31,962 nucleotides of DNA. Source: a virus. Numbering within the stretch: the stretch's first letter is position 1; each line of letters begins with the position of its first letter. Of this stretch, positions 1-31,962 are shown piece after piece. The DNA lies in IMG/VR virus record IMGVR_UViG_3300045988_073522, positions 1 through 31,962 of that record. The stretch is one strand, 5' to 3'. Made by a program: the position numbers and the translations under genes. The notes beneath the pieces are model-generated. The model worked only from the letters and a program-made list of their open reading frames with translations. It was not told where the DNA came from and made no database searches.

Positions 1-1479
1 ACTCCAGTCATTGAAGAAAGTAATTGGTTTTTCATTTCCACTAGATGTTATCAAAGTAAATGGTTTCAAATATTCTGGAGATATTATAGTTTTAGAAGTA
101 TTAAATATAATACCATTAGATAGATAATTCTCAGCTACATTATTTAATAGAAACTCTACTCTATCAGTTTCTGGATATTTATAAGCCTTGCCAGCATAAA
201 CCATATCTCCTGCATAATCTAGATGATATTCAATAAAATCTGAACTGATTATCTCATTCCAAACATAATCTTTCCAAATAGGAGATATATCAGATTTAAC
301 AGATTGTGTAATATTAATAGATAAATTAATAATACTTGAACTATTCTTTATAACAGATACTCCAATAGTTGCTTTTCTGGAAGATAATCCTGAATTTTCT
401 GCAATGTTCAAACTAATAGTTGCTACACCTTGAGGATTCACAGTTATCTTCTGTCCACTAATCCAACCTACAGGAATGCTAAATACAACATCATCTAAGT
501 TGTTTGAGCCTGTACCAGTTATATTTAATGTAGATGCAGTTCAACTTACTTCATAATTAGTATTAGGAATCATTAAAGATGTTGCAGCTTGTTTAATTGG
601 AACTGTAGCTTCAAGAGTATAACCTCCAGAAGTTGTTGCAGTAACCATTGCACTAAACTCCAAATTATTAGTAGTTTTATTCTCTGGAACAGTTAATACA
701 AAATAGTTATCAACAATATCCTTTTTAATATTACTAGCTTGAGGGCAGGTGACATTAAATGAGGTAATTGTTTCTTCTGCTTTAGTTGTACTTAAATGGA
801 ATTCTTCAGTAACAAAAGCAGATGCTCCATAAGTTCCAGATGAAGGAGTTACTACTAGCTTTAAATCTTCTGGAGTATTACTTTTTTCAATTTTAAAGCC
901 GTAACTATAACTAATAAATTTATTAGTATCATAATAAGCTCCTAATTGGATAGTTCCAATTAAATCTGTATTTCATTGAGTATTAGCTCTTACTGTAAAT
1001 TTAAACTTAATAGAGCAAGAATCCCAATCCAGAACTTCCATATTAACTAAAGCTGTAGCATTAACAACTGCTGCATTTCATTTAATAATATCTGATCTAT
1101 TTAATATATACTCTACTGTATATTCTCCACCAGTATTTGGTACTTTAATGGTGCCATTAGCAGGATAATATCCAGGAGCTTTACTATGTAAATTAATTGG
1201 TAAATCTTCCTCTAATAAAGCAGTAGTAATGCCTCTAGGATAAAAATGAAATACAGTAGAAGAATCAGTAGTTATTGTTGTAGGAGATAAAAATTGTATT
1301 GTACATCCAGAAGTACTAGGCTCTTGTATAGTTACCTCTAAAGGCCCTTCTTCAGTATAATCATCTCCCCAAGCCCAATAATCATATTCTCCAGTAATTC
1401 CCCATCCAGGATTATTCCATTTAACAGGAAAACTCCTTGATGCGTTATATATTCCTAATTTACTTGGTATAAATGCCAT
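1..1479 (-). CDS. Tail/baseplate-associated structural protein; C-terminus lies beyond the window start (493 codons visible); 3 in-frame TGA read as sense
   Basis: ATG at 1479-1477. Hand translation of this frame down to position 1 meets no TAA/TAG, only TGA at 1078-1080, 973-975 and 541-543. Track ORF 1078..1479 is only the N-terminus. S/T/N/G-rich composition; function inferred from composition and context only. Confidence 0.75.
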
Positions 1480-1481
1480 TT

Positions 1482-1970
1482 TTAAAAGTTTTTAAATACA
1501 TAATAATCTACTTGTCCTTGAAGATCTTTAGTTATAGCATCATCAAGAAGCTCCATATAGTTATTTTCTATATATTCTATAGTATTTGATAATGGATGTT
1601 TACCTTGAATTCCTTGAAGATGTATCTTCCTCCCAATTAAATATGTAAGCTGATCTATTGTTGGTAACTTACCATTATAAGGTCTGGGAATAATTGGCTT
1701 AGTTTTAATCCAACTCTTTATATCATTAAGTGGAGGGAACTTACCAGAATGTCTGCCTTCTTCAACGTATTTCCAATAATCTAATAAACTAACATTAACT
1801 TCATAATCCCCATTTTGGGTCTCAACAATGTAATTTAAACTATTACCTAATAATCCAGTATCATCAGTCCTTGTTTGAACCAATTCCTGTCTATATAAAG
1901 AAATTATGAGTTCTCCTCAACGTCTTAATAACTCATTTAAATTTGGGAAATTTAGTTCTTGAATATTCAT
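1482..1970 (-). CDS. Hypothetical virion protein, 162 aa (weak resemblance to HK97 gp10-type tail-completion proteins)
   Basis: Real ATG at 1970-1968 (the track start at 1883 is a TTG). One in-frame TGA at 1917-1919; TAA stop at 1482-1484. First gene downstream of element copy 1. 'YWKYVEEGRHSGKFPP' is the only functional hint. Confidence 0.65.
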
Positions 1971-2013
1971 TTTTGTTAAAATATATTAATTTATAGGTTA
2001 GTATCTAAACACA

Positions 2014-2036
2014 AATAGGGAGACTTACTCCCTATT
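2014..2036 (-). terminator. Stem-loop AATAGGGAG-N5-CTCCCTATT, followed on the minus strand by TGTGTTT
   Basis: Perfect 9-bp inverted repeat read directly. Sits between element copy 1 and the ATG at 1970. Confidence 0.4.
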
Positions 2037-2091: not shown

Positions 2092-2409
2092 TTAATGTTT
2101 TCGTTTTCATTCTTCAATTTGTCTATTTTCTTCATTAGCTTTATCTATAACATAACAAATTGTATTTAAGAACTCTTTAATTTGCATATCATAAACTTGA
2201 TGCCAATTAAATTTAGTAACCTCACTTACTTTATCTATTCAGATAATTCAGCTTCATTTTTGAGTAAAAGGAGTAACCGTCTCATCTGTATCAGACTCCT
2301 TAGAATCTTTCTCCTTTCTAATTTGTTCTTTGTTTTCTTCAATTTCTTCTTCATCTCTCTTTCCGAAGAGTGAAGGGTACTCAGAGTTGATAGTCGCAAT
2401 AAGTTTACA
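2092..2409 (-). CDS. -1 frame continuation of the 2876 gene (fusion about 261 aa) reached by slippage at the T9 run
   Basis: The -1 frame has no TAA/TAG from 2451 down to the TAA at 2092-2094. It contains 4 TGA (2254, 2248, 2239, 2107). It encodes an acidic linker followed by '...KFNWHQVYDMQIKEFLNTICYVIDKANEE...', which reads like real protein. Confidence 0.45.
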
Positions 2410-2876
2410 AAAAAAAACATTATATCTGAAAATACATCAATTGTTAAATGATTATTCAAAAACTCTGCTTCATCCAAAGGATCATAATCTTCTCCATACT
2501 TCTTACCTTCTGGTAATAAAAAGCAAGCAGCTAGATTTGGCATATAATCATCATACTTCTTATAAAAATTCTGGAAGTCTATGTATTGACTTGCAGTCAT
2601 CTTATTAACATTAAAAAAGACTTTATATTCCCTGTCTCCAATAATATATTTAGTTTCTGGAGTTTTAGGTTTATATGTACTCTCTACAAATTTAAGATTG
2701 TTAATTAATTCTTGTAATTTATTCAGCTCCATATTTTGAATTTCTTCTAAAGAAATATCACTAAGTACAGATACCATAGCTAAATTCATATCTAATTCAT
2801 TTTCTCATTCTTTTCTAATTACATCCAATAGTTTTCTATAATGAGCTAAATTCATTTCATTCCAAGATTTTATCAT
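2235..2876 (-). CDS. Hypothetical protein, zero-frame product (213 aa), possible assembly chaperone
   Basis: ATG at 2876-2874, 1 nt after the terL TAG (the track start at 2789 is an internal Met). TGA at 2805-2807 read through; TAG stop at 2235-2237. The last ~57 aa after the T9 run are K/R/L-rich and look out of frame. Confidence 0.6.
2409..2417 (-). other. Homopolymer T9 (mRNA sense AUG UUU UUU UUU GUA): candidate -1 slippery site
   Basis: Nine consecutive A on the plus strand at 2409-2417. It is exactly where the zero frame starts to look non-protein-like and the -1 frame starts to look protein-like. Confidence 0.45.
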
Positions 2877-2877
2877 A

Positions 2878-4125
2878 CTATTTAAATTTAATATTATAAT
2901 GTCCTTTAGTTGTATTTAATGAGTCATAGGCTAGCATTAATGAAATTACTGTATCATCATTAAATCCAGATGGAGCATTATAACTAATATTTCCAGTTTT
3001 TGGATTATATGAAGCTTCATATAGTCTTAACTCATTTAAAAGTTTATCATCTTTTAATAATCCTATCTTTTCATTCTCCAAAGCAGCTTGAAGCTTATTA
3101 ACTATATCTGCCTTACTCTTATTAGTAGTTAAGAATCGTATAATCCTGATTTTCGGATTCTTCTGAACTAACATATCATAGAAGACACTACCAATTGAGT
3201 TTTGTTCAACTTGCACAATCTTTATAAATCCTTGATACTCAGTTAGTATATTTGTTAATAAATCAACTTGCTCTGTTGGAGTTTTATCGTTAAAATACTT
3301 TATAAAGACCATTTGCCCAGATTCATTTAAAGCAGTAACACAAGTATAGTCTTTACCACTCCCAGTAGCCCAGTCTATTCCTATATAAAGACTCTGATAA
3401 TCTGGTTTTTTCTCAATTATGCAATTAGCTATATTATTAAATAAACATCCATCATCATCTGCAAATTCCCCTAAGTATTCGGTTCTAAATTTATTTTTTG
3501 AGGTTGTAAGTCGATACATCTCTAACTTCTCTTTATCTAAAAGCATAGATGTATCTTCTAAAGCTCAATCAAATGATTTATAGAACTTGTCATATTTCGG
3601 ATCTAACCCTTTAGTAAAGCAGTCATAAAAGAAACCCTCTCGGAACCTTGGAGTACTAATAATTAATATTGGAGCAGACCACACATCAGTAGTAGGTTTA
3701 ATAATTTCAAATACTTCATCTTTTAAGTAAGCAGCCTCATCTAATACAAGTAATCCACTTACAGAGAATCCTCGTAACGAATCCATTTGTTCTCCAGATC
3801 TAAATAATATAGAACTGCCATTATTAAACTCTAATTCAAGCAAAGTTTCATTCTTACGTTTAAGAATATCTGCTTCAGCTATAGCATTAACTATTTCTTT
3901 AAACACTTTTCTTGATTGCCCAAGAGTAGGTTCTACTATACAATTGACTGTTTTTGGATAGTTAATTGCAAATCGTAATAATTCATTTTCAGCTAAGAAA
4001 GATTTACCTACTTGTCGTTTAGCTTTAATTGTAAATATCCTTCCAGATCTATAAGCATCTGCCATAGCTATATGAACCTTATATTGGTACATAAATGGCC
4101 TATATCCTTTATATATCCTTGTCAT
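2878..4125 (-). CDS. terL: Terminase large subunit (415 aa)
   Basis: Track ORFs 3565..4125 and 2878..3546 share a frame and are separated only by TGA at 3565-3567 (...KSFD-W-ALEDTSMLLD...). Walker A 'KRQVGKSF', Walker B 'LLVLDEAAY', nuclease motifs 'IGIDWATGSGKDYT' and 'FNDDTVISL'. TAG stop at 2878. Confidence 0.85.
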
Positions 4126-4561
4126 TTATAATAGGATCTCCAAATTTAAATTGGCATTCATTATTTTGAATATTAACTTGAATTTCTGGTTGATTTAATC
4201 CAAACATAGAATTTATTGTTTTAATAACCTCAGTAGCAGATCTTACATCATTTTTACTAATAGCAATATCCAACAATGTTTCCAATCTTGTTAATTGTAT
4301 ATGTCTTAAATTCTTTATAAGATTATCGTTTTTATCTGCAATAATCTTATAAGCTTCTCTAATATATTTAGCAGCAGTAGTTTGCCCAACTCCATATTTA
4401 GTTTGAAGTTCCTCACTTACTTTATTTCTGGACCACCCTTTATTAAATAATCTTGCTGCATAAAGATATTTAGTTTTTTGTTCGTCTATTTGATCCTCTT
4501 TTACTTCTTCCTTTTTCGGTCTCCCTATTTTCTTCGGCAGTTCCTGATTCTTTACTTTCAT
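4109..4561 (-). CDS. terS: Putative terminase small subunit (150 aa)
   Basis: Basic N-terminus plus an HTH-like 'GWSRNKVSEELQTKYGVGQTTAAKYIREA'. Lies directly upstream of terL and overlaps it by 17 nt. TAA stop, no TGA. Assigned by position and architecture. Confidence 0.5.
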   Translation of the reverse strand: MKVKNQELPKKIGRPKKEEVKEDQIDEQKTKYLYAARLFNKGWSRNKVSEELQTKYGVGQTTAAKYIREAYKIIADKNDNLIKNLRHIQLTRLETLLDIAISKNDVRSATEVIKTINSMFGLNQPEIQVNIQNNECQFKFGDPIINDKDI

Positions 4562-4805
4562 TTTCCTTTAGTTTTTCTTGATATTCAAAATAGATTGGGG
4601 CAATCCTCTTTATAAGATTAAGTATACAAGTAGCACAAGCTACGCTCATTCTATATTCTTGTTCAATTAAATATTCATAAATCTCTTTAAGCTTAATTAC
4701 ATCCTGCTTTTGTACATTTCTGCAATAATTAGACTTAGTTGCAGTTACAAATCTATCTTCAAATCCTCTTAAATATTTAAACTGCTCTTCTGTTAATTGT
4801 TTCAT
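4470..4805 (-). CDS. Hypothetical protein (111 aa)
   Basis: ATG at 4805, TAA at 4470, no TGA. The last 92 nt overlap the terS start in another frame, so the real C-terminus is uncertain. Confidence 0.5.
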   Translation of the reverse strand: MKQLTEEQFKYLRGFEDRFVTATKSNYCRNVQKQDVIKLKEIYEYLIEQEYRMSVACATCILNLIKRIAPIYFEYQEKLKENESKESGTAEENRETEKGRSKRGSNRRTKN

Positions 4806-4894: not shown

Positions 4895-5224
4895 TTAATT
4901 AATAAGTTTGTATATAACATCTATCAGCTTAGTAGATGCATCTTTTAATAATATCATAATATCTTTAATAATTGGAGTCATAAATGCTAATAGTGCAATA
5001 TACCCAACCATTAAAATTGAAAATTGACTTGTAATAAGAATATATATTAATCCAATTCACCAAGTCATACATAAACTGCAATCTAAAGGTTTTAGTCTTC
5101 AATCTTCTTTATAAGGTATACCTTTAAATAGTCTTTTTCAAATACTGTGTTTAAAACTATCCAAAGCCCCAGATAAATCAATTATAAAGACTATTATTAC
5201 TGCTATTATAAATAATTCTAACAT
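4895..5224 (-). CDS. Small membrane protein (109 aa, about 3 hydrophobic segments)
   Basis: Absent from the track because of TGAs at 5138-5140, 5099-5101 and 5057-5059. ATG at 5224, TAA at 4895-4897. Hydrophobic runs 'LELFIIAVIIVFII', 'MTWWIGLIYILI' and 'ILMVGYIALLAF'. Confidence 0.6.
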
Positions 5225-5463
5225 AATCTCTCTCTTATTTGTTTAATAAATCTTTGAATTGTAGTATGACTAATTCCTAATATTCTTCCCACTTCTCTAT
5301 AACTGTGATATTCAGCATATAATATGATTACTGTCTTATCTGCCTTATTAAGCTCAAGTCATTTTGGATATATACTTAATAGTCTATCATCCATATTTGT
5401 AAACATACTATAGTCTATTTCATACTCAGTAAGTAAATCGTCAATATTAATCTTCCGTTTCAT
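5218..5463 (-). CDS. Sigma-70 region-4-like HTH protein (81 aa)
   Basis: Absent from the track (TGA at 5359-5361). ATG at 5463, TAG at 5218-5220. 'VIILYAEYHSYREVGRILGISHTTIQRFIKQIRERL' resembles sigma region 4.2 / LuxR-type HTH. Confidence 0.55.
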
Positions 5464-5755
5464 TTAATCAATCCTCCAATTCGTCATTTTGTTGTTCAAG
5501 TGGTTCTTTAACAATCTCATAATATTTCTTATAGGTATAGTAATATCTACTTGTTTTACTAAACCAATAATTCTTAAATAATCTTGTAATCCAAAATTTC
5601 AATTCATTTTTGCTATCAAGCTGATTTAATTTTGGATTTGAATACTCTAGTATTTCTACAAAAATCATTTGAACACAGTCATCATCTGCACCAAATTTTT
5701 GCTTAAGTTCCATAATAAATGGATAGTACTTTTCTACAATTTCGTTATTACTCAT
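5447..5755 (-). CDS. Sigma-70 region-2-like protein (102 aa, ECF-like)
   Basis: Track ORF 5468..5755 ends at a TGA. Read-through adds WLNETED and then TAA at 5447-5449. 'DDCVQMIFVEIL' and 'LKFWITRLFKNYWF' resemble regions 2.1-2.4. Confidence 0.55.
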
Positions 5756-6242
5756 ATGTTCACATATATCCTCCTGCTGTTTTTCGCTGCCCTTTAAGAA
5801 CCTTTACAATATTTCTAGATTGTATATTTAGTTCTCTCTCAGCATCTATTGCTGAATCCCATCTTTTAATAACTATTCCATTTAGTAATTGCAGTATTGG
5901 TTTCTTATGACTATATCCAGCTCGCAGATTATGAGTTCCATAATTATTATTATAATTATAAGTACACCATTCTAAATTACTTACATTATTATTTGATTTA
6001 TTTTCATCCTTATGATTTATACAAGGATAGTTATTCGGATTAGATATAAAAGTTTCAGCTACTAATCTATGTATATAACACTTCTTTTTCAAATTTTTAT
6101 TATATAATGTTACTGTAAAGTACCCATTAGTTTTTACTTGAGGTTTTAACCTCTTTGGAACTGATGCTCTTAAACTTCATATTGAGCCATCAGTTCCAAT
6201 TTGGTAGTTTTCAAAATTAAGTATTCTTTTATAGGCTATCAT
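5748..6242 (-). CDS. HNH homing endonuclease, copy 1 (164 aa)
   Basis: ATG at 6242 (the track start at 6092 is a TTG). TGAs at 6177 and 5760; TAA at 5748. N-terminal 'FENYQIGTDGSIWS', HNH core 'HRLVAETFISNP..INHKDENKSNNNVSNLEWC', tail 'GGYMWTYE'. Confidence 0.8.
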
Positions 6243-6666
6243 TTGCTATATAATTACTAAATTCTGTATTTACATCTATCTTAATGGCTTTCTTTAAAGA
6301 CAACTCTGTTTTTAATGAATAGCCATAAGTTCCTCCAAAATCTGTTGTAGAACAACCATATTTCATAGAATCCTTTATAAAGGCTTGTTTTATATCTTTA
6401 AATATATATACTCCATCATCAAATATTATTACTAATATAGAATTATTTCTTGATAGCATATCAAATTTATCCCTATTAATAATAGTGGTTGGATATTTAT
6501 TAGAATTAAATCTTCTCCTTTTAACTTCAATTATATAATCAATTCCATTCCAATTAAATGTTCCATCATATCTGGAGTAATCGTCTTTACATCATTCTAT
6601 GTCTATATTAAATTTCTCTTTAAATAGATTCTTTGTAAAGACTAAGCTTCTTATATCTGTTTTCAT
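6229..6666 (-). CDS. Hypothetical protein, possible PD-(D/E)xK-type nuclease (145 aa)
   Basis: ATG at 6666-6664 (the track start at 6459 is an internal Met). TGA at 6592-6594; TAA at 6229. 'RYDG...IDYIIEVKRR' looks like a D...ExK core; the functional call is weak. Confidence 0.55.
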
Positions 6667-6905
6667 TATTTTATATTATTAATTTTAAGTGTTAAATCAC
6701 AATATTCTTCATATAAATTAGATACTTCTTCACTTGCTGGATTAATCCACATTACTGAATCTAATTTATGTTTTAATTCTGCTCTTTCTAATCTTAATTC
6801 AAATGTTTTATGTTGTCTTTCCTGATAGACTTCATTTACTCTAAAACCTGCAACAATTGAAGATGCAATTAAAAGACCAACTAAAATTTTATTTATTTTT
6901 TTCAT
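6666..6905 (-). CDS. Small membrane-anchored protein (79 aa)
   Basis: N-terminal hydrophobic anchor 'ILVGLLIASSIVAGF' followed by a charged helix. First gene after the promoter at 6949-6980. Its TAA overlaps the next ATG (TAATG). Confidence 0.6.
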   Translation of the reverse strand: MKKINKILVGLLIASSIVAGFRVNEVYQERQHKTFELRLERAELKHKLDSVMWINPASEEVSNLYEEYCDLTLKINNIK

Positions 6906-7056: not shown

Positions 7057-7542
7057 ATGATTTACGTAATTAAATTAACTAAAACGAATTTTATTAAAGT
7101 TGGTTACACTACTAATATAAGTGGCAGACTAACTGCTTATAAAAATACTATTCCAAATGAGATGATAGAATTTTTTATAGCAAAAGAAGGAAATAGAGAT
7201 GATGAAAATTATTATAGAGATAAATATAGAGCATATAAAACTAAGAGTAATTCAGAATGGTTAAAACTTCCAGATGAATTAATTGTAGAGCTATTAGCAG
7301 ATTTTAAGAGTGCAAATAATATAAAAATAAATAAACAAAGCAAAAAAGAATGATATAATGAGAATATAGATAAATTAGTAGAATTGTGCTTATCTGGAGT
7401 ATCATTAAATAGAGCTGCAATTCAATTAAATGCACTAAATTGAGACTGAATAAAATATGCTAATCAAAGATACGAAAAAGAGAATGGCAAAAAATTAACA
7501 AAACTTTGGGTAAGAAAAATCAAGAAAAGTTTTGCAGAATAA
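7057..7542 (+). CDS. GIY-YIG-superfamily (T5orf172/MUG113-like) protein with a C-terminal HTH-like tail (161 aa)
   Basis: Track ORF 7057..7353 stops at a TGA. Read-through of TGAs at 7351, 7441 and 7447 gives '...LNWDWIKYANQRYEKENGKKL...' up to TAA at 7540-7542. 'IYVIKL..IKVGYT..R..Y....SEWLKL' fits the family. Confidence 0.6.
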
Positions 7543-7561
7543 AAATTTATTATTATATTTG
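7531..7561 (+). promoter_or_regulatory. Bacteroidetes-type promoter: TTTG-N19-TATATTTG
   Basis: tttg cagaataaaaatttattat tatatttg, read directly. Overlaps the end of the 7057 gene. Confidence 0.4.
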
Positions 7562-7590
7562 TAGTGTAAAGAAAAAAATAATTTTTTATT

Positions 7591-7646
7591 AAAAATAATA
7601 CCCGAATTATTTGGAAATTTAATTTTTATGTATTATCTTTGTAGTA
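7591..7646. repeat. Right arm of the inverted repeat (promoter duplicate)
   Basis: Shares a 19-nt identical block atgtattatctttgtagta (7628-7646), plus tttggaaatt and aaaaataatacc, with the reverse complement of 6944-6999. Confidence 0.7.
7610..7641 (+). promoter_or_regulatory. Bacteroidetes-type promoter: TTTG-N20-TATCTTTG
   Basis: tttg gaaatttaatttttatgtat tatctttg. Same boxes and spacing as the minus-strand promoter at 6949-6980. Confidence 0.5.
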
Positions 7647-7669
7647 TGAAACTAAAACTAATAATTCTA

Positions 7670-7695
7670 GGCAGGTGAAAATCCTGCCACTTTTT
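7670..7695 (+). terminator. Rho-independent-type terminator GGCAGG-N7-CCTGCC + ACTTTTT
   Basis: 6-bp GC-rich stem followed by a T5 tract on the plus strand. Lies downstream of the 7610-7641 promoter and upstream of element copy 2. Confidence 0.55.
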
Positions 7696-7705
7696 GAATC
7701 TTACT

Positions 7706-7754
7706 GTCAAGTTTTTTACTCAAATTTAGTAGTAAGAAAATAAAAATATTGACA
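7706..7754 (-). repeat. Conserved intergenic element, copy 2 (49 nt); the only copy inside the plus-strand block
   Basis: gtcaagttttttactcaaatttagtagtaagaaaataaaaatattgaca. The first 28 nt are identical to copy 1. Same orientation as the other copies even though both flanking genes are on the plus strand. Confidence 0.8.
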
Positions 7755-7784
7755 AAAACTTTAACTATTTAAATTATTAAAATT

Positions 7785-9506
7785 ATGAAAACATATTTAA
7801 ACAATTTGATTAATGAGTTGCCAACTAACTGTTTATTTGATAAAGGAAAAGTTGGATGTGGAGGAACTTCAATGGCAATTGAATGTAATAAGCCTTATGT
7901 TATTTGTGTTCCATTTACTAGCTTAGTTGAAAATAAACTTCAACAATATCCAAATGAAAGACGTACTGAGAAGATATTTGGAGTTTATGCTGGAGTTACT
8001 ATTAAAGAGATTAAAGATTACGTAGAGAGTGTTAAATGTCCTAAAATTATTGTTACATATAACTCACTTCCAAAAGTTATTTCTGCAGTTAATACTAAAG
8101 AATATAGTTTATTAGTAGATGAATATCATATACTATTTAATCAGTATAGCTTTAGAAAGGATGCTATTAAACCTGTTTTAGAGAACTATGAATTATTTAA
8201 AGATTTTACATTTATGACTGCTACTCCTCTTGAAGAAGAGTTTGTATTAGATGAATTAAAAGATTTAGAATTAGTAAAGCAAGAATGGGATGATGTTATT
8301 GAAACCAAGGTACAAGCCGTTAAATGTAAGAATGTTGAAGCTTCAACTATTAAATTAATTAATGCTGTTCTTAATAATCAAGTCGAAGGTAATGTTTATA
8401 TATTTGTAAATTCTGTAGACTTTATAAAGAATCTTATTCAGAAAGCTAAACTTACAGAAGAGAATACCAGAGTTATATATTCCAAAAACAATAAAACCAA
8501 ATTATCAATTCATAATTCTACAGTATTAGATGAACCTAAGAAAATAAATTTATTAACTTCTACAGTATTTGAAGGTTCTGATATTTATGATGAAAATGGA
8601 AGAATTGTAGTAGTAAGTGATGCTCAAAAAGCACAAACTCTTCTTGACATCTCAACTTCAATCCAACAGATTGCTGGCAGAATTAGAAATAGTAAATATT
8701 TAAACTGGATAACTCATCTTTACTCAGCAACAAGATATGCAGATATTAGTTATGAAGACTTTAAAAAGAAGAATATCCAGAATATTGAGGAAACTAAGAT
8801 TGCTGTAGATGCTTACAATGCAATGCCTGAAGTTGCAAGAAAGAAACTTAAAGAATTTACATCTGATACTTATATCCAAGTAAATGATGATTTTACATTT
8901 ACATTTGATCCAAATATGGCTAAGGTAGATATTTTTAACTTTAAAGTGACAAGAGGTTTATATTCTATTAGAACGAATCTTAATAAAGAATATATAAAGA
9001 ACGGATTTAAAAAAGTAGTAGAATGTGAAGACAACTCTATTAAGATTGATTTTGAATCTGATAATAAACCATTTAAAGAACTAATTAAAGAAGTTAGAAC
9101 AGAATGGGAAAATAAATTTAAACTGAATACTCCACTCTTAAATGATGCTATTATTAAATATCCTTGGTTACCAGAAGCTATTAGTAAATTAGGATTCGAA
9201 AAGATGGCAAGCTTGAAATATTGCATTTCGGATATTAAAGATGCTCTATTAAAGAAATCAAATAAAAGTGCAGATAATAAAGCAGCTAAGAAGTTAAATC
9301 AATCAATTACTCTTGGAATGTGGTATTCTAACGCTGATATTAAAAAGTTTGTTAAAGAAGCTTATGAAATTAGTGATATTACTATTACTCCAAAAGCAAC
9401 AGAAATTGATAAATATTATGAAGTTAAAAAATGCCAGAAAAGAGTAAATGGTAAACAAACTGAAGGTTATGTAATTATTAATAAAAAGTTTGTATTTAAT
9501 AAATAA
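7785..9506 (+). CDS. Superfamily-2 (DExH-type) helicase, 573 aa
   Basis: Intact in the standard code; all 5 Trp are TGG. 'GKVGCGGTS' (Walker A-like), 'LLVDEYH' (DExH), 'FMTATP' (motif III), 'TSTVFEGSDI' (V), 'QQIAGRIRN' (VI). TAA stop. Confidence 0.75.
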   Translation: MKTYLNNLINELPTNCLFDKGKVGCGGTSMAIECNKPYVICVPFTSLVENKLQQYPNERRTEKIFGVYAGVTIKEIKDYVESVKCPKIIVTYNSLPKVISAVNTKEYSLLVDEYHILFNQYSFRKDAIKPVLENYELFKDFTFMTATPLEEEFVLDELKDLELVKQEWDDVIETKVQAVKCKNVEASTIKLINAVLNNQVEGNVYIFVNSVDFIKNLIQKAKLTEENTRVIYSKNNKTKLSIHNSTVLDEPKKINLLTSTVFEGSDIYDENGRIVVVSDAQKAQTLLDISTSIQQIAGRIRNSKYLNWITHLYSATRYADISYEDFKKKNIQNIEETKIAVDAYNAMPEVARKKLKEFTSDTYIQVNDDFTFTFDPNMAKVDIFNFKVTRGLYSIRTNLNKEYIKNGFKKVVECEDNSIKIDFESDNKPFKELIKEVRTEWENKFKLNTPLLNDAIIKYPWLPEAISKLGFEKMASLKYCISDIKDALLKKSNKSADNKAAKKLNQSITLGMWYSNADIKKFVKEAYEISDITITPKATEIDKYYEVKKCQKRVNGKQTEGYVIINKKFVFNK

Positions 9507-9520
9507 AAATATTATATTTG
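9489..9520 (+). promoter_or_regulatory. Bacteroidetes-type promoter: TTTG-N20-TATATTTG, ending 4 nt before the ATG at 9525
   Basis: tttg tatttaataaataaaaatat tatatttg, read directly at the 3' end of the helicase gene. Confidence 0.45.
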
Positions 9521-22737: not shown

Positions 22738-22758
22738 AATTATTTAAAATTTTATAAA

Positions 22759-23373: not shown

Positions 23374-23968
23374 ACTTAAATTTAAAATTTTTATGATAGT
23401 TTTGTTTATTTTTGCAACATTTTATAATAGCACTATGATCAAAATTTCCGTTTCTTTCAGCGTCCATAGCAGATTTCCAAGTGCATATATAAGTATCATT
23501 AATATCTGTCATAATTATACGTTTACTTACTTTTTCTTTCTGCTGTTCAGTTTGTTTAGTTCCCAATCTACATTCTCTTAACTTTAATTTTGTTTCATCC
23601 TTTAATACTCTTCCAGACTGTTTTAAAGACATTTTGTGTTTAGATTCTTCACTGTGTTTAAATCCAGTATTAGAACCTCCACCTTCATTTAAATTATAAC
23701 CATTATTTAATGTATCAAATAACTGAATATATTTAATTTCTGCATTATTTAGTTGTCTTTTCAATAATTCTGTAGAAGAACAACAAAAGATTTGAAGAAT
23801 TTCCCATTTAAAGTTATTGAATCCATATTTCCTAATCGCTCTATGAAAATATGTAAGATTAGAACTGTATTTATGTTCATTCTTTCTTCTCAAGAAATTA
23901 TTTGTTTGTCCTACATATTTATTGCCATTTATAAGATTTGTTGCTAGATATATAACTCCACTATACAT
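23357..23968 (-). CDS. GIY-YIG homing endonuclease, copy 2 (203 aa)
   Basis: 'GVIYLATNLINGNKYVGQT', 'RRKNEH', 'YGFNNFKWEIL', 'GYNLNEGGG'. C-terminal module 'ICTWKSAMDAE..SAIIKCCKNKQNYHKNFKFKY'. Inserted between the protease and scaffold genes. Confidence 0.85.
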   Translation of the reverse strand: MYSGVIYLATNLINGNKYVGQTNNFLRRKNEHKYSSNLTYFHRAIRKYGFNNFKWEILQIFCCSSTELLKRQLNNAEIKYIQLFDTLNNGYNLNEGGGSNTGFKHSEESKHKMSLKQSGRVLKDETKLKLRECRLGTKQTEQQKEKVSKRIIMTDINDTYICTWKSAMDAERNGNFDHSAIIKCCKNKQNYHKNFKFKYEQIN

Positions 23969-23969
23969 T

Positions 23970-24560
23970 CTATTTAACTCTTTTTATTTTTCTCAACATT
24001 TTTTGAATCTCTTTAAGTTCCTCATATTCATCAGATTGTCTTTCTAAAGTAAACAATCCCTCAATAGATAACCCTTTAAACTTTCCAGCTTTAATTGCAT
24101 CCCATATAACAGGATTATTTACTTTATAAGTAGCAAATAATGAACCATCTGGACAATCAGCAAATTCAACTGGATTAATTCCTCTATCTATATCTTTAAC
24201 ATATAGTTCTTGAAGAATTATTCCAGGAATTACTGAATCTTCCAAATGTTCAATATTTACATCAGTAGTTCTCTTATCATACATCATTTTTTCAGCCATT
24301 AAACGGAGAGTTTCTTTATCATATTGAATATAATATTCTCCGTTTTTACTATCCCGTCTAAATATAGGTATATCACATACCATTAAACAAGAAGTAACTA
24401 TATGTTTTTCTTCATCCATCGAGAACTTCTGAGATTCCCCAAAAGCAAGCCAATTAACTTGGGTTGCAGGTTTACTGGTCAATGCTACGAACTCTATTCC
24501 ATCACAATCATCAGCAATAATTGCTTGATATAATGGAAGATCATTATACATTTTTTCCAT
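23970..24560 (-). CDS. Putative prohead protease (XkdF-like, 196 aa)
   Basis: Sits upstream of scaffold/capsid. 'HIVTSCLMVCDIPIFRRDSKNGEYYIQYDKETLRLMAEKMM...VNIEH' recalls the XkdF-type family. TAG stop, no TGA. Confidence 0.5.
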   Translation of the reverse strand: MEKMYNDLPLYQAIIADDCDGIEFVALTSKPATQVNWLAFGESQKFSMDEEKHIVTSCLMVCDIPIFRRDSKNGEYYIQYDKETLRLMAEKMMYDKRTTDVNIEHLEDSVIPGIILQELYVKDIDRGINPVEFADCPDGSLFATYKVNNPVIWDAIKAGKFKGLSIEGLFTLERQSDEYEELKEIQKMLRKIKRVK

Positions 24561-24640
24561 TTTTTATTAATATATAAGCTATTTTAAAAATGTAATATTG
24601 TTACAATCTTTTATTTTTATATATTTATATACTATCAAAT

Positions 24641-24688
24641 GTCAAGTTTTTTACTCAAATTTGTATCTAAGATAAATAAATTTTGACA
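24641..24688 (-). repeat. Conserved intergenic element, copy 4 (48 nt)
   Basis: gtcaagttttttactcaaatttgtatctaagataaataaattttgaca, upstream (minus-strand sense) of the protease gene. Confidence 0.8.
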
Positions 24689-24691
24689 TAG

Positions 24692-24735
24692 CACTACTAT
24701 ATAAGCACTGATAATCAGCAACTTACATAGTAGTG
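24692..24735 (-). other. Long hairpin CACTACTAT-N26-ATAGTAGTG with an inner palindrome CTGAT-t-ATCAG
   Basis: 9-bp perfect outer stem read directly. Lies between the stop of the TMP-like gene (24756) and element copy 4. Confidence 0.5.
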
Positions 24736-24755
24736 TGTCAGAAATTTTACTCACT

Positions 24756-27437
24756 TTAGAAACTTGCATTTGATTCTGTAACTGCAACTTTAGTTTGAGC
24801 ATTAGTAATATCACTCTCAACTACATAGCATTTAACAGGTTCATTTAATAAATCAGTCTCTTTATCACCAAGTAAGTTTCGAGTGTATTCTACAGGAGTA
24901 GTGTTTAAAGCAGCAGGTGCTGCAACAGATGCAGAAGCAGAAGATGCAGATGCTCCACTAGTTTCATCTACTTCTCAAATCTTTTTAACATTAGCTATAC
25001 CAGCTGCAATTGCTGCAGCAGCGGCGGCAGCACCTAAAGCTGGACCTACAACTGGAATACCAGCCATTGCAGAATAAGCACTGTTAGCTGCACTATATGT
25101 ATCAATTAAAGCTTGAGCTGTTGCGAATCCTTTACCTACTTTACTTTCCTCTCCTCATATAGTTGCCATACTTCCTGCAACCTTTGATGCTAGATCAAGG
25201 CGAGCTTTTATAGATTCTTGATATTGCTTATTAACATTTTCTCTAACTTTGTTTTTCTTATTTTCTCTGTCTATTTCATTTTCAGTTAATTGCTCATCAA
25301 TAGAATCTAATTCTAGTTTAATAAGTTTTCTCTGATCAGCTGTTAAAGTCTCATTTTCTAATTGTTTTAATAGAAAAGACTTCTGCTCCTCCAATCTTGT
25401 TTTTATTTGATTATTATATTTATCTATAGAACCTTCTTCAGTATCTGTTCCTAATAAACGATCTTTATATCCCTCTATGTCTTTTTTGCTTGAATAAGAG
25501 AACTCACCACTTAATCCAAATATTTTGGCAAATCCTTGTGTATATTGAGTTTTAGGAATTTCTAAAGATGGATCTTTTATATCATACCTTGCCTCGCGCA
25601 TTCTTTTTAACTCAGTCTGCAGATCATCTCAAGCTTTATCCGCAGCACTTTTTCTTGCATTTTCTTCATCTTCTCTAGCCTTATCTCTAATTTTCTTCAG
25701 CTCTTCTTGATGCCAAGCCTCAACTTCTTCAAGACTTCTATTATTTTTAATAGCTAGCGCTAATAGTCTAATATATTCATCTTCAAGTTCGTCTACGGGA
25801 TTTTTGGCATTTAGTCTATTCTGTAACCATACATCAAACTCATTTATTTCTTCTTTAGCCTGTGTAGTGTTATTTTTAATGACTTCTATGTCAAAAAATC
25901 CTCCATATTTCTTATTAAGCTCAGCCACATCTTCAAACATCTTTCTGAGTCTTTCTTCTATTTCTCTGTTTAAGTCTGAAAGCTCATTATAAGTGTTTTC
26001 TTTGTTTTGTTTAGTATATTCATATATCTGACCTTGATAGTCCTTCCAAAACATTGCGGTGGCTTTAAATGCTTGCCAAGCAGACGCTTCTCCAAAATTA
26101 GTATCTTCTATCTTATTTTCAAGCTCAGAACGTTTATTTAAATACTCTTCGTAGATTTTAATTGCTTGCTCCTCTATAGCTTGAGCTTTGGCTCTTGCTG
26201 TTAAAGCAGCTACATAATTTCCAGTATTATTAATAAATGCGTCTTCTGCTTGAGCTACAGTGTTAATATTTAAACCAGTCTCTTTAATCTTATCTGCATA
26301 TTTATTAAGGAACTCTTGTTTAGCATCAGCTGAATCTCCAACTCTTTCATATGCTATCTGAAGCTCTTTAAATATAGCAATAGACTTAGAAGAAATTTGA
26401 TTAGTAGCATCAGTGATAGATTTTCTAAATTCTTCTTGCTCTTTAGCAGCTGTTCTTATAGAAGATACATAATCTATTACCTTATTAATAGCTAATCCAA
26501 TAGCTGTAGCTAAAGCTATCCATACTGTTACATTACCAATAGTTTTAAGAGCTGTAGTTGCTTTTGAAAATGCTGTAGTTGCCTTAGCAGCTTGTGAAGT
26601 CCCATCTGCCAGCCCTTTCGCAGCATCTGCTTGTTTATTCAATGCTGCTGCAATTGCTGGAGAATTCCTTTTTAATCTCTCTAACTCTTCACTGGTGACT
26701 TTCATACTGTTAGCAGAATTCTTAACAGTATCATTAAATTTGCCAACTATGGGAATGGTATTAGATACACTCTTATTAGTAGCAGATATTTCAGCAGGAG
26801 TGCCCATTACTCCTTGAATCATACCTCCTTTAAAATTAATATTGGTGCCTTCTAAATCCTTGACTACTTTAGAGATATTACCTAATTCAGTTCCAACATT
26901 ACCAACAGATGTGCCAATGCCATTAAGCTTAGATGCATCAATCTGATTAAGATTTTTGGCAGCATTATTCAACCCTGTATTAAATGGAGAGATAAAATCA
27001 GTTAATTTCTTAAACCAATTACCTAAAGTAGGCAATTCTTCTAATAAATCTTTTATACCTCCAATACCTTGTACTAATGCAATAGATGACTGTAACTTAA
27101 CCATTACTTTATTTAAATCTTCTGATTCTTTCCCAAATAAAGTAATAGCAGCAGTTGCAGCTCCATATCCACTGGCCAAACCAGTGGATATTTTAGCTAC
27201 ACTTTCAAACCTTTGAGCAGTAGTTCTTGAAGATCTTGCTATCTGCTCATTAATTTTATTGAACTCTGATTGTCTTTTACCTAGTAATGCAAGAGTTTCA
27301 TTATATTCCTTAGTACCAATCTCTAAATCATTCAGAGAACTAGATAATGCGTCAATATCTTTCTTTAAAGAGTTTATTGATTTATTACTTGATTTAGTAT
27401 CAATACTAATAACCTTTTTAATTTCTGTTTGTGCCAT
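24756..27437 (-). CDS. Tape-measure-like protein (893 aa)
   Basis: Track ORFs 25629..27437 and 25155..25601 are in the same frame. They are joined across TGA 25629, then read through TGAs at 25155 and 24975 to TAA 24756. Long coiled-coil regions, hydrophobic 'VTVWIALATAIGLAI', Ala/Ser-rich C-terminus. Confidence 0.7.
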
Positions 27438-30400
27438 TAGATTGTAATATTTTTAACAGTATCTTCTGTTAGTGTTAAATTCTCTGTATATTTAACTGTT
27501 CCTGTAGGTCCATCAGTCACTTCAAATTTAAACTGAACACCTTTTTGAGCATATATTCTATAATTTCCATTATCCTGCATATAAGCCACATTCAAGAAGT
27601 TATCGTTTTCTGTAAGTATCTGATTTACCCCAGTTGGTATAGTGCCACTTGGAGTTTCTAATTTGCCTGTAATAAGAACAGCTTTATTTGGGTCTGGAGT
27701 TTGAGTAAACATACATTTAGGACCATCTACGCCTCCTTGTTTATAAAGACTAAAGTAGAAACTCCTTTGATTATATGTAGTATTCTCATTATAAGTAACT
27801 GTTAATTCTGTTTCTCCAGGTTGCCCAGATTCAGGTGTAATGCTTACAATTTCATTTGGACTATATCATCCTAATTCTCAAGGAATATTAGAAGTAACTG
27901 TAATCTTTTTAGTCCCAGCTTTATAATCTACAACTGGATCTGAATCATCAAATGATATATATTCACCTAGATTTTGAACTCCAGCTAAATAACTATTAAT
28001 ATCTTGAACTTTAATAAATTCACATCTAACTGTAGAATCTGAATTAATATCATAAGCATCAATCTTATTAAGTATCCAGTAAGAATCTTCAAAATAATAG
28101 AACTGTCTAAGTAAATCATACTTAACATCTAAATCATCCAATCTTACAAAACAAGTAACTTTCTTAGTATTAACATCAAATTGATCATTATAAAATTCAC
28201 TTCAGAATCTACTATAAATAGTACTTCCGATATTATAAGTTATATCATCAATATAAATCTCTTGTGGTAATCCAAAATCTCAAGAAGCAGTAACATTAGA
28301 GGACGAAACGGTATACCTTGTAAATTGAGGTAATACAGTTCTCTTTATAGCAATTTTATTCCCACTAATATCTTTCTCACTTTTAGTAGATATATAACAC
28401 ATTTCCTGATCATTTAATATGTTCATTTCTGTAAGATCATCTGTAATTCAATATGTTACTTCATTTCCTTTTACATCAGTTAAAGGAACATTACCGTTAA
28501 AGAATACTAGGGATTGAGAGATATCCTCTAAAGATTCCTCATTACCATCAATTGAGAAAAATACATTTTTGGCAAATATATCATTACCTGCGATTTTATA
28601 TCATTCTGTGGTTTTAGAGGGATCTATAAAATTAGCTCCGTATAACTCTTGATCTATAGTCTTAAGTTCAGTAGTGCTATTATTAAATAATGTATAGGTA
28701 ATATTATCATTCATAAATGCAGGAACTACAAGGGAAGAAGAATTGTAAAAATTTCTAAAATATTTATTTCTCCATCTTGCAGAAACTATATTTTCATATA
28801 TATTATCACTATACAGTTCAGTTGTTTCAGAATTAAAATTATAACCAGTATTTAATCTTTGTTGACCATATAATATAGAATATTCCTTATTGTATTTTTT
28901 ATAAAAATAAGTTTCTGGACCTTCAGAACTCATTCTATATCACTTCTTATCAAATAATATTGGATTTACATTGAAATCTTTAGAATAATCTATTCTCTTA
29001 CTCCAATCAGAGATTATATTCTTAAAGAAATTATTTCTAGTATATATTCTAATTGTTTTACTATCAATATCTTTTGTAAAATATAACCCAAATAGTTTTG
29101 CATAACTCAATAAGTAATCAGCAGGAGATTGTTCTGTTTTTAATAATAATTTTTTAGTTAATAATGCATTACTTTGAAGTACCTCTGTAGAAGTAGTAAT
29201 TTCAATGGGAGAAGTAAGATCTACTATAAGATCTCCTTTTGGAATAGCTTGGTAATCCTCTCCTCTTTCTATTACTTCACTTAATAATCCAGTAGGGCGA
29301 ACACTATTTCCAGTAGATCATACAACATTAAGTTTAATTTTAATTTTATTAATTGGAATTTTAAAATTTGTAATATTAATAACAAAATCATTAGTTAATG
29401 AAGAAGTATCATAAAATACATTATTTTGAAAATACCCAAAATGATTAACCCCATTAGCTATAGGATGTGAGTAGGTTCCTGAATTTGTAAATCTATGTAT
29501 TTCAGAAGTATAAATAGTATCATCTACTTCATTAGTAATTGTTAGCCAAACATCAGCGTATCCTCTATATGCTGAATAAAAAGGAGGAGCAGAGGAGCTA
29601 AAATACCTTCTAAATCCAAAAAAATATCTATCCCCAACATTTCCTGCAGTTCGATTAAACTTTAACTTAAAATAAAAAGTTGTAGAAAGGCTTTTTCTAA
29701 ATCCAGCCTCACTTAAATCAATTATTCCAGAATCGTAAACAATATCAGGTGATGCAATGGATAATTTTAAAGGACTTGATGTAGATTCTCCTTTATTTAT
29801 ACCTACCTGATAATTATATTTACTATCTTCTACTAAAAAGCCAGATTCTGTTACATCTTCTTCGTCACTTACTAGATTAGATAATAAAGGTAAAGCTACA
29901 AAGGATTTACTTCAATACGGATTATTTCAATTAAAAAATGAAGGATCAAATACTACATCATATCCAGAATTCTCTTTTCTACAGATAGTTTCAATTAACT
30001 TACTCAATTTTAAAGCTGGCCTTTGCATATAACTTCTAAGATCTCTCATCTCCCATTCTGTATATGCTCTATTTAATTTAGCTAATCCATACCCATTATA
30101 AGGTGTATATGTAACTCCTGAATCTGTCTTACTAGTAGGAAATATACTATTTTCATTAGTATTTATTAAACAAGTTTCATTATCAAAATCTTCATATAAA
30201 CCATTATATGCTGGAATAAATGTCAAATAATCATATATTTGACTTCCTTCATTCGTTTTACTTCAGTCAAAACAAGTATTTACAAAATCTTTGTTAATAT
30301 AAAAATTAAGTTCAGTATCAGCAGGAAGTGTATTCCCATCTTCATCAGTTACAAAGTATTGTAAATCAGCAAGAGTCCTAATAGTACCATCTTCTTTATA

Positions 30401-30793
30401 TTTAAGTCCATAGAAGAAATCTCCTAATCCTCCATATAAAGTAATATTATAAGTAATGACAGCTTGTTTTATAGATATACTATTTAATTGCATATATCCA
30501 GATTCAACTAAATAGTCATTATTATAGATTCCAAAATCAACTCGTTTTGAAGGATCAAAATATACTCCAGAGAAATTACCTTCTTTTATATGGAGAAATC
30601 TATCTAACTTATAAATCTCTCCAAAAATCTTATTATTATTTTTGTCTCCTGGAATGCTTATAGTCTTACTGAATGAATTTTTTACTATTGTTGGATTCTG
30701 AAAATCTTCTACAGTATAAGTCATTGGTAATGATATGCCTTCAGAACAATGTACTTCTTTTCCTGCAATAAATAATTTAATATTTTTACGCAT
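27437..30793 (-). CDS. Large tail/baseplate-associated structural protein (1118 aa)
   Basis: Five track ORFs (30263.., 29927.., 28601.., 27878.., 27437..) and all gaps between them are one frame. Hand translation of every gap found only TGA: 30263, 29927, 29912, 29318, 28940, 28601, 28448, 28280, 28202, 27878, 27866. ATG at 30793; TAA at 27437. Confidence 0.75.
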
Positions 30794-31265
30794 ATTTTCA
30801 AATATATCCTTTATGTTGTGAAATATTACCAATACAACACTGTCCTATATTTTGGGGAACAAACCCATATTTTTTAGTATCAGCAATTGAATTTCATCTC
30901 TTTATAAAAGTGCCATCTAAGCTTTCCTGTATTACAGGTTTTTTATTATTATTTAATCTATTTCCATAAGTAACATTATATTGAGCTGTACATCATTCTA
31001 AATTATCAACCCTATTATCCTCCTTTATCTCATTTATATGATTTACTTGTGGTAAGTTTTCTACGTTTGGAATAAACGCTTCTGCAACTAATCTATGAAT
31101 ATTGAATCACTTGCCAGACTTATTCTTTCACAATTGAACTTTTGTATATCCAGCTGGAGTATATCCACTCTTCAGTTCTTTATTGTTTTTTATAGAGAAG
31201 ACTTTACCAGTATTACTTATCTGGTAAAGTCCCTCATATCCTTTAATGTCTTTATATACTTCCAT
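30786..31265 (-). CDS. HNH homing endonuclease, copy 3 (159 aa)
   Basis: Absent from the track because of 5 in-frame TGAs. ATG at 31265: '[24 protein letters not shown]', '[37 protein letters not shown]', ending 'HKGYIWKYA'. TAA at 30786. Confidence 0.8.
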
Positions 31266-31267
31266 AA

Positions 31268-31962
31268 TTATTTACGATAAGTATCTTGAGAAGCTTCTAC
31301 ATTAATTGTATAATAGAACTTGTTTTTACCTTGATTAGTATAAGTTTTATATTCACAATTTGTATCTGTAATCAATACTGGAGTGATAGTATTATCTTTA
31401 AGATTATGCAAATATACTTTAGTACTCTCAATTAGATTAAACATCTTAGAAGCTTGAATATCATTTAAATAACCAGTATAAAGAACCCAGCTTGAAGTTA
31501 TAGTATTCAAATACTTATTTCTTGCAAACTCTTGTGATGTATTTAATACCTTACGAGTATATGTTTCAGATTTAATCTCATCATTCTTTTTAACATTACC
31601 CTCAACAAGTAATGAATCTCATCCACCTGCTGAATTAGTATAATACAACACATAATCTTTACCTGTAGTATCTATATCATATCTAATCTGTCTATCACTA
31701 ATATTTCCACCTTCTACAAATCCTACTATTAAATAGCTTCCACAAGACCATAATTTATTACTTAAATCTTCTGTATATGTATATCCATTAATTCCAGAAT
31801 TTAAACTAATATCCATAGCAGATTGTACTCCATCTATATAAAAGAATCTATTAATAACTCCAGTTCCAGTTGGTAGAATTCAACTTGATACTAAATACTG
31901 CCTTGGATCAACTAAACCAGTAATAGGATCACTTAACATAGTGCCTTTAGTTAGATCTCTAT
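31268..31962 (-). CDS. Virion structural protein of the tail/baseplate module; N-terminus lies beyond the window end
   Basis: Track ORFs 31619..31816 and 31268..31510 are one frame, joined by TGA 31619. The frame stays open past TGA 31880 to the window edge. TAA at 31268. Confidence 0.65.

Follow-up and report, generated by a model that had tools for sequence, protein, structure and literature searches.

The 31,962-bp stretch of viral DNA analyzed here (IMG/VR record IMGVR_UViG_3300045988_073522, positions 1 to 31,962; the window) is the circular genome, about 32 kb long and complete but for about 7 nucleotides (nt), of a tailed phage, abundant in the human gut and uncultivated, in which UAA and UAG are the sole terminators and TGA, as judged by comparison of related sequences, means tryptophan. 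Our best explanation, to which we assign a probability of roughly 0.9 as a whole, is that this near-complete gut-phage genome has UGA read as tryptophan through decoding in trans, most likely in a Bacteroidota host that itself uses the standard code.

Gene models that begin at the first ATG, reach at least 80 amino acids (aa) and are bounded by TAA or TAG only numbered 37 (10,129 codons), and they contain 56 in-frame TGA codons, spread over 23 of the models (62%), and not one in-frame TAA or TAG. These 23 models represent 22 genes because the first and the last are one gene cut by the window ends, and small open reading frames (ORFs) hold 2–3 further TGA codons. The two off-frames of the same genes contain 402/337/121 and 878/220/570 TAA/TAG/TGA, respectively, and the complete models all terminate with TAA, or with TAG at 2235, 2878, 5218, 12944, 16749 and 23970. 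Greedy ATG-to-stop coding density was 0.56 under translation table 11, 0.85 with TGA as sense and again 0.56 with TAG as sense, and the longest stop-free frame grew from 639 to 1135 codons once TGA was sense, with 100 dinucleotide shuffles giving a longest table-4 ORF of 134 codons on average and 195 at most. Pfam matches also run across TGA, such that Terminase_6N (residues 37–231) extends over residue 187 of the large terminase (TerL) and HNH_3 over an NLE-TGA-C motif. The sole site that could equally serve as a terminator is the TGA at 5468–5470 in gene 5447–5755, which precedes the gene's TAA by 6 codons and the next gene's ATG (5463) by 2 nt, with GGAGG standing just before this TGA/ATG site.

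These results bear out an earlier sequence-only reading of the same DNA, which had proposed TGA as a sense codon. Its estimate of about 60 TGA codons in 24 models was essentially right, its statement that TAA and TAG are missing inside the frames holds for all 37 models as against hundreds in the off-frames, its rule that all genes end in TAA or TAG stands with an exact match at all six TAG positions, and its joins in terL (3565), in the tape-measure-like gene (25629, 25155 and 24975) and at 18556 and 17671 are correct; the gene at 15214–16233, which it had assembled from three fragments, actually holds four TGA codons (15970, 15514, 15454 and 15232) and hence five fragments. Two checks that it had suggested, ORF re-calling against shuffled controls and profile searches, came out in its favor, with table 4 lengthening ORFs well beyond the shuffles and Pfam domains crossing TGA sites as described above.

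Four independent lines agree on tryptophan as the meaning of TGA in this genome, namely codon exchange among relatives, the residues of distant homologs, the motifs of paralogs, and overall tryptophan content. Across about 85 loci of close relatives (72–100% nucleotide identity), the TGA sites of the window are occupied by TGA 1352 times, TGG 336 times and TAT 43 times, with GGN absent from the common alternatives, and its TGG sites by TGG 2293 times and TGA 234 times; a switch between TGA and TGG in at least one relative was found at 34 of 56 TGA sites and 43 of 73 TGG sites (77 of 129 in total). The distant comparison, made by tblastn against 80 distant, mostly standard-code loci together with the I-HmuI structure, yielded 27 alignable TGA sites, most of which face tryptophan (W), phenylalanine (F) or tyrosine (Y), with summed BLOSUM62 scores of +36 for W, +24 for Y, +16 for F and −61 for glycine (G), the last being aligned with TGA in 4 of 245 residue pairs. 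Distant homologs have an invariant W at three TGA sites, in 9/9 relatives at residue 864 of the 1118-aa distal tail protein, in 11/11 standard-code relatives at residue 56 of the 109-aa membrane protein, and in 2/2 relatives of the endolysin. Residues 294 and 618 of the 1118-aa protein are mostly Y or W in relatives, and terminase residue 187 is W in relatives down to 63% identity and F in standard-code relatives of about 50% identity. Among paralogous HNH genes one uses TGG and two use TGA for the W of the motif NLEWC, I-HmuI (1U3E) has W at the NLE-TGA-C site, and the five TGA sites of the HNH gene at 30786–31265 face F, T, W, Y and F in that structure. Finally, TGG alone makes up 0.72% of codons and TGG plus TGA 1.28%, a normal tryptophan content. 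Tryptophan had been the most likely meaning in the sequence-only reading as well, which had suggested inspecting the residues that face TGA, and these proved mostly aromatic.

Completeness of the genome is indicated by its ends. The left-end ORF (1–1479) and the right-end ORF (31268–31960) are halves of one 726-aa gene in relatives, separated by about 7 missing nt, which comprise the two YK codons and the opening base of the Asp codon after them. We call the genome near-complete because DNA of a relative spans both window ends with a 10-nt gap, a 100% identical human-gut scaffold of 31,976 bp has its N-gap exactly there, and related contigs in ENA, Logan and IMG/VR measure 29–33 kb. The window has a G+C content of 29.4% and a plus strand richer in T than in A and in C than in G, and TAA/TAG-bounded gene models cover about 90% of it, mostly on the minus strand and nearly without gaps, with a single plus-strand unit at 7057–9975. 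Its gene content is that of a tailed phage (Terminase_6N/6C terminase, portal, tape-measure-like protein, 800-aa fiber, endolysin and a helix-turn-helix (HTH)/sigma-like regulator), the S78-type protease and the Phage_tail_C domain of the fiber being assignments seen in relatives. The sequence of the putative capsid protein recurs in at least 100 assembly blocks, some of them from human gut metagenomes, and reached 323x coverage in one (ERZ505314). Megablast of the window against GenBank phages gave no match, a TerL protein search returned only relatives of <30% identity (Thermus, haloarchaeal and jumbo phages) that were uninformative on the host, and PHROG, NCBIfam and PDB sequence searches of the uncharacterized window proteins came back nearly empty. 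Public gene calls of relatives, evidently made with TGA as sense, match our lengths (726, 1118, 415 and 301 aa, and others), and the lineage is already in public catalogs with table-4 gene calls.

Read with TGA as sense, the window has the following features (coordinates, strand, identity and in-frame TGA positions).

1–1479, minus strand: virion gene of the tail/baseplate region, N-terminal 492 of 726 aa; TGA at 1078, 973 and 541, with TGA/TGG swaps at 973 and 541.
1482–1970, minus strand: neck/tail-completion-like protein, 162 aa, weak phrog_5 match; TGA at 1917, where relatives have Y, W, F or L.
2235–2876, minus strand: 213-aa protein; TGA at 2805.
2878–4125, minus strand: large terminase, 415 aa; TGA at 3565 (residue 187), inside Terminase_6N.
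4895–5224, minus strand: membrane protein, 109 aa; TGA at 5138, 5099 and 5057.
5218–5463, minus strand: HTH or sigma-70 region-4-like regulator, 81 aa; TGA at 5359.
5447–5755, minus strand: 102-aa protein; TGA at 5468.
5748–6242, minus strand: HNH/NUMOD4 homing endonuclease, NLEWC written with TGG; TGA at 6177 and 5760.
6229–6666, minus strand: 145-aa protein; TGA at 6592.
7057–7542, plus strand: 161-aa protein of the plus-strand unit; TGA at 7351, 7441 and 7447.
7785–9506, plus strand: superfamily 2 (SF2) helicase, 573 aa, with an AlphaFold model; no TGA (0 of 5 Trp codons).
9525–9974, plus strand: three small ORFs of 53, 46 and 47 aa; in-frame TGA in the first.
9978–10007, no strand: hairpin with a 13-bp stem between the convergent plus- and minus-strand units, likely a bidirectional terminator.
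10011–10580, minus strand: GIY-YIG-type/NUMOD1 homing endonuclease (Pfam); TGA at 10263 and 10023.
10580–11032, minus strand: Peptidase_M15_3 endolysin; TGA at 10643 (W in 2/2 relatives).
11032–11193, minus strand: holin-like ORF, 53 aa, putatively membrane-bound, labeled so because it lies directly upstream of the endolysin and has two hydrophobic stretches; no TGA.
11197–11850, minus strand: 217-aa protein; TGA at 11809, 11584, 11413 and 11248.
12277–12954, minus strand: DUF6712 protein; TGA at 12775.
12944–13606, minus strand: GIY-YIG/NUMOD3 homing endonuclease (Pfam); TGA at 13439 and 13160.
13587–14678, minus strand: portal; no TGA here (0 of 4 Trp codons).
15214–16233, minus strand: tail-fiber-region protein, 339 aa; TGA at 15970, 15514, 15454 and 15232.
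16235–16834, minus strand: HNH homing endonuclease, start probably near 16756; TGA at 16451, inside the NLE-W-C motif.
17650–18771, minus strand: tail protein, 373 aa; TGA at 18556 and 17671.
18773–21175, minus strand: tail fiber, 800 aa; TGA at 20693.
21267–24560, minus strand: head-module block with a 174-aa protein, a putative major capsid protein (assigned by position only), a scaffold-like protein, a GIY-YIG endonuclease (23357–23968) and an S78-type protease; 0 TGA among 11 Trp codons.
24756–27437, minus strand: tape-measure-like protein, 893 aa; TGA at 25629, 25155 and 24975.
27437–30793, minus strand: distal tail protein, 1118 aa; 11 TGA (30263, 29927, 29912, 29318, 28940, 28601, 28448, 28280, 28202, 27878 and 27866).
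30786–31265, minus strand: HNH/NUMOD4 homing endonuclease; Trp codons all TGA (31128, 31107, 30993, 30894 and 30798).
31268–31960, minus strand: C-terminal 230 aa of the 726-aa gene; TGA at 31880 and 31619.

The AlphaFold model of the 7785–9506 product (predicted local distance difference test score of 82) matches DEAD, Snf2, Mfd and herpes simplex virus UL9-type helicases, and this protein is probably a replication or origin helicase. Homing endonucleases number six (three HNH/NUMOD4 and three GIY-YIG/NUMOD), are mostly TGA-rich, and differ in presence among otherwise near-identical relatives; loci L086, L087 and L090, for instance, carry an HNH gene that separates the 726-aa gene from the 1118-aa gene and is absent from L082–L085. 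Three non-coding gaps of 195–264 nt (1971–2234, 7543–7784 and 24561–24755) lie at the same positions in relatives, and neither ARAGORN nor Rfam nor a promoter and terminator scan revealed a known RNA in them; a small terminator-like hairpin stands at 7670–7688, within the second gap.

Evaluating codon choice gene by gene revealed that TGA is not a neutral synonym of TGG. TGA accounts for 43% of Trp codons, against 70–96% A-ending codons in the other NNA/NNG pairs (binomial p = 3e-10). Lineage-wide, the TGA fraction is lowest in the SF2 helicase (2/181), the putative capsid (1/144), the 174-aa head-module gene (2/110) and gene 6666–6905 (0/44), is 0.10 in both portal and protease, and reaches 0.84–1.0 in the fibers, 0.86 in the HTH regulator and 0.45–1.0 in most homing endonucleases. 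The early genes at 7785–9506, 6666–6905 and 4109–4805 are free of TGA. In the window alone this heterogeneity among genes is weakly significant (permutation p = 0.04), and it is convincing only with the lineage-wide counts.

No gene that could account for the decoding was recognized. ARAGORN found no tRNA in the window, nor did Rfam at E≤1, and none turned up in the ~85 loci of close and intermediate relatives, among which are two additional code-4 lineages (TerL 56% and 63% identical); the method does detect a tRNA(CUA) in L014, a distant, TAG-recoded relative that served as positive control. Relaxed ARAGORN runs (thresholds of 80–90%, introns allowed, mitochondrial mode) gave only scattered calls inside coding regions, a "tRNA-SeC(tca)" call at 12740–12837 was rejected for its mismatched stems and folding z-score of −0.41, and two sub-threshold Rfam snoRNA matches (E≤1) were taken as chance. 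Pfam, PHROG and NCBIfam scans covering most, but not all, proteins found no release factor and no tryptophanyl-tRNA synthetase (TrpRS) or other aminoacyl-tRNA synthetase. The sequence-only reading had seen no suppressor tRNA or release factor gene and had suggested a genome-wide scan for a UCA anticodon; that scan was negative, and the earlier statement gains strength from the window being the complete genome. The decoding agent must thus come from outside, or be of a kind that these tools cannot recognize. Such a lack is common, as Sup-TCA tRNAs were detectable in only 35% of code-4 phages in one survey (Borges et al., 10.1101/2021.08.26.457843) and in only 15% in another (PMC11210395).

To whom the phage belongs is suggested by its leaders and its wider relatives. 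GGAG stands upstream of only 3 of the 37 genes, the leaders being A/T-rich as in Bacteroidota. Syntenic relatives with TerL about 50% identical and about 31% G+C use the standard code and carry Bacteroidota-type integrases (Arm-DNA-bind_5 / Phage_int_SAM_5), and the nearest standard-code relatives (L094–L096, L003 and L009; 30–32% G+C) stop with TGA in 0–1 of 10–17 genes, which fits a loss of TGA stops preceding capture of the codon as sense. Contigs of 189 kb and 587 kb from Bacteroides metagenome-assembled genomes contain TerL relatives at 39% identity, and Bacteroidia bins make up 8 of the 12 best genome matches. A helicase homolog (45% identical) resides in a TAG-recoded prophage, L243 (density 0.85 with TAG as sense vs 0.53 under table 11), that sits beside a tRNA-Thr(CGT) in a standard-code chromosome of 38–40% G+C and whose helicase and integrase are without a recoded stop; another helicase homolog adjoins BACON-domain genes. 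Distant terminase- and helicase-family relatives (L014, L015 and L243) are TAG-recoded (code 15), and the wider group has thus switched stop-codon meaning more than once. The holin and M15 endolysin pair implies a walled host. The Bacteroidota −7 promoter motif TAnnTTTG was not enriched (54 found vs 48.6 expected), a few copies being intergenic and in the right orientation, and was not used as evidence.

A further link came from IMG/VR contig 3300045988_175865 (148.6 kb), in which about 117 kb from a crAss-like phage, with a TerL that matches crAss-family records, is attached to one small-phage copy. The junction lies within the fiber gene with an overlap of about 6 nt, and the crAss-like part is 99.6% identical to other members of its lineage up to that point. 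We considered and rejected a host contig or a concatemer, as there is a single small-phage copy and the flank is crAss-like phage DNA; the contig is probably an assembly chimera formed through a recombinant fiber. Two ordinary small-phage contigs carry 0.4–1.7 kb of the crAss-like fiber gene at 92–94% nucleotide identity (fiber-sharing loci L172:1-9300, L177:1-1682, L173:6199-6631 and L188:15641-20065), the window fiber (18773–21175) is about 37% identical in protein to the crAss-like fiber over 158 residues plus a repeated motif, and its C-terminal segment is what adjoins the crAss-like fiber in the 148.6-kb contig. Shared fiber DNA indicates that the two lineages exchange fiber modules and presumably share a host. 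In the crAss-like partner the ratio of TGA to TGG is 87 vs 24 in the late block and 16 vs 52 in a tRNA-rich early block, and this block-wise code implies that the host decodes by the standard code when infection begins. In addition to at least 14 tRNA species, the partner (IMG/VR 3300045988_141593, 156017, 173136 and others) has a transfer-messenger RNA (tmRNA)-like gene (ARAGORN tag peptide AKNTVRKMANKVMPLATPMRAQVAFAA*; tmRNA/tRNA loci L231:8417-8838, L224:18560-18981 and L221:19176-19579), shows no tRNA(UCA) and no tRNA-Trp in the 64 kb scanned, and had no Megablast match among GenBank phages.

Because of the few Shine-Dalgarno sites, the integrases and TAG-recoded prophages of relatives, the crAss-like fiber link and the under-use of TGA, we favor a standard-code Bacteroidota host, and we regard it as likely, though short of secure, that this is the host and that recoding follows the scheme put forward for other gut phages (10.1101/2021.08.26.457843; PMC7886860). 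Under that scheme, the early replication helicase would stay readable in the standard code and the most heavily expressed head genes would likewise avoid TGA, whereas tail, lysis, regulatory and homing-endonuclease genes would require UGA read-through, which would couple their expression to a state of the cell that reads UGA as tryptophan. That state could arise from near-cognate reading by the host tRNA-Trp(CCA) once release factor 2 (RF2) is disabled or outcompeted by an unrecognized phage product, from a suppressor that the host or a TGA-recoded phage in the same cell provides, or from a non-canonical RNA that escapes detection. Taken as a specific claim, we find it doubtful that a 32-kb phage in standard-code Bacteroidota either uses an unrecognized non-tRNA mechanism, in which an early protein would, for example, inactivate RF2 or redirect the host tRNA-Trp, or free-rides on the code switch of a co-infecting TGA-recoded crAss-like phage.

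The rival that survives best is a host that natively uses table 4, without RF2 and with a tRNA-Trp(UCA), which the phage would simply mirror, as Mycoplasma and Spiroplasma phages do, with no switch involved. Some observations that weigh against our preferred reading lean this way. TGA occurs in 62% of genes, including the one for the HTH regulator and one in the plus-strand unit, and such widespread TGA in a lineage whose complete genome and ~85 related loci show no suppressor tRNA is the look expected of a phage of a natively code-4 host. The base following TGA is C in 1 of 56 cases, and this lack of a leaky-termination context also argues against simple context-dependent read-through. Our preferred reading has further points against it: the large TGA-free non-structural gene encodes an ordinary SF2 helicase unconnected with translation, and no code-switch gene was recognized; the host link is indirect, as neither a matching CRISPR spacer nor an integrated copy of the lineage turned up; and published proteomic validation covers TAG to Gln only, with TGA to Trp unconfirmed by proteomics (PMC9523058). 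In favor of the native-code rival, INPHARED table-4 phages mostly infect Mollicutes (PMC11210395). A native code-4 host nevertheless appears unlikely to us, since it leaves unexplained why TGA makes up a mere 43% of Trp codons where other pairs are 70–96% A-ending and why it is nearly absent from the helicase and main head genes. The holin and peptidoglycan peptidase cassette speaks against wall-less Mollicutes, and no walled gut bacterium is known to use code 4. Shine-Dalgarno sites are lacking (GGAG at 3/37 genes), relatives have Bacteroidota-type integrases or are recoded prophages in standard-code chromosomes, and the fiber-sharing crAss-like partner has standard-code early genes.

Helper dependence, by which the small phage would complete its cycle only where a crAss-like phage or a resident element has already switched UGA to tryptophan, is in our view quite improbable as a full account. 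Its appeal lies in the fiber stretches of 0.4–1.7 kb that are 92–94% identical to a TGA-recoded crAss-like phage, in the 148.6-kb contig joining both genomes at the fiber gene, which would mean a common host and co-infection, in the partner's tRNA array and tmRNA-like gene, and in documented TGA-recoded crAss-like phages with Sup-TCA tRNAs (PMC7886860; PMC12386605). That contig may, however, be an assembly chimera, the partner lacks a tRNA(UCA) in the 64 kb scanned, and coverage of 323x and at least 100 assembly blocks look like an autonomous phage; a helper relationship is an attractive idea that we treat as putative. The remaining readings are excluded by the four lines of evidence for tryptophan. 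TGA as glycine (table 25), with an Absconditabacteria or Gracilibacteria host, would accommodate a sense TGA with no encoded tRNA and has precedent in code-25 phages of human microbiomes (PMC10746230), yet has next to no chance given the near-absence of glycine at aligned positions (4/245 pairs; G −61 vs W +36), the swapping of TGA with TGG and not GGN, and the conserved W motifs NLEWC and GY.W.Y written with TGA. Sequencing or assembly errors, pseudogenes, selenocysteine or rare programmed read-through have nothing in their favor beyond the in-frame TGA itself and are vanishingly improbable, because frames are interrupted by TGA and never by TAA or TAG, sites are conserved or swapped to TGG in dozens of independent assemblies, 56 sites, 11 of them within a single essential tail gene, are more than inefficient read-through or selenocysteine could account for, and the aligned residues are aromatic rather than Cys; no tRNA-Sec was found (selenocysteine insertion sequence elements were not searched).

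Recoded phages are known, as the sequence-only reading had noted (10.1101/2021.08.26.457843; PMC7886860; PMC11210395), and membership of this phage among the table-4-type (TGA to Trp) recoded phages is established, with a recognizable suppressor tRNA lacking. Like the Agate and Jade table-4 gut phages (10.1101/2021.08.26.457843), it aligns TGA with Trp, stops with TAA and TAG only, is low in G+C, has recoded structural and lysis genes beside a replication gene in the standard code, and has close standard-code relatives that hardly stop with TGA (L094–L096, 1 of 10–17 stops); it differs in being 32 kb rather than 127–200 kb, in having no Sup-TCA tRNA, release factor 1 or TrpRS (protein scans being partial), and in that several of its most-expressed virion genes are TGA-free rather than TGA-rich. 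The small Garnet and Amethyst phages are about 34 kb, with a Garnet prophage in Prevotella and 71% of genes recoded (10.1101/2021.08.26.457843), and our phage resembles them by description in size (~32 kb), in 62% of genes being recoded, in its Bacteroidota association, and in having temperate relatives with integrases and TAG-recoded prophages in standard-code chromosomes (L243), although the described representatives are TAG-recoded where this one uses TGA and the window has no integrase. With TGA-recoded crAss-like phages (PMC7886860; Zeta group "Lera", PMC12386605) it shares late-gene TGA to Trp and the human gut, and with one such lineage also fiber-gene DNA; these phages have Bacteroidota hosts and a likewise reported mismatch between recoding and detectable suppressor tRNAs (PMC7886860; PMC12386605), but are 85–170 kb, with unrelated virion genes, large tRNA arrays and a clearly block-wise code. 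Like a Mollicutes phage on its host's table 4, ours uses that code with no suppressor tRNA of its own; it differs in having a holin-like ORF and a Peptidase_M15_3 gene, in lacking Shine-Dalgarno sites, in its Bacteroidota-type relatives, and in a strong under-use of TGA (43%), which is not its dominant Trp codon. Table-25 phages of Absconditabacteria and Gracilibacteria (PMC10746230) are similar in using TGA as sense and rely on host decoding, but there TGA means Gly, which is excluded here.

As the phenomenon is known and nothing known is overturned, the value of this genome lies mainly in annotation and as a compact test case. Table 11 splits the terminase, tape-measure and 1118-aa tail genes and lowers coding density to 0.56, so that annotation, clustering and host prediction for this phage must use table 4. 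How recoded phages without a suppressor tRNA are decoded is an acknowledged open question, for which this phage offers a complete 32-kb genome, dozens of natural variants, a tRNA-free lineage, clear per-gene avoidance of TGA, and a TGA-recoded crAss-like phage probably in the same host. If free-riding on that phage's code switch were true, the two would belong to a guild of phages with a common alternative code.

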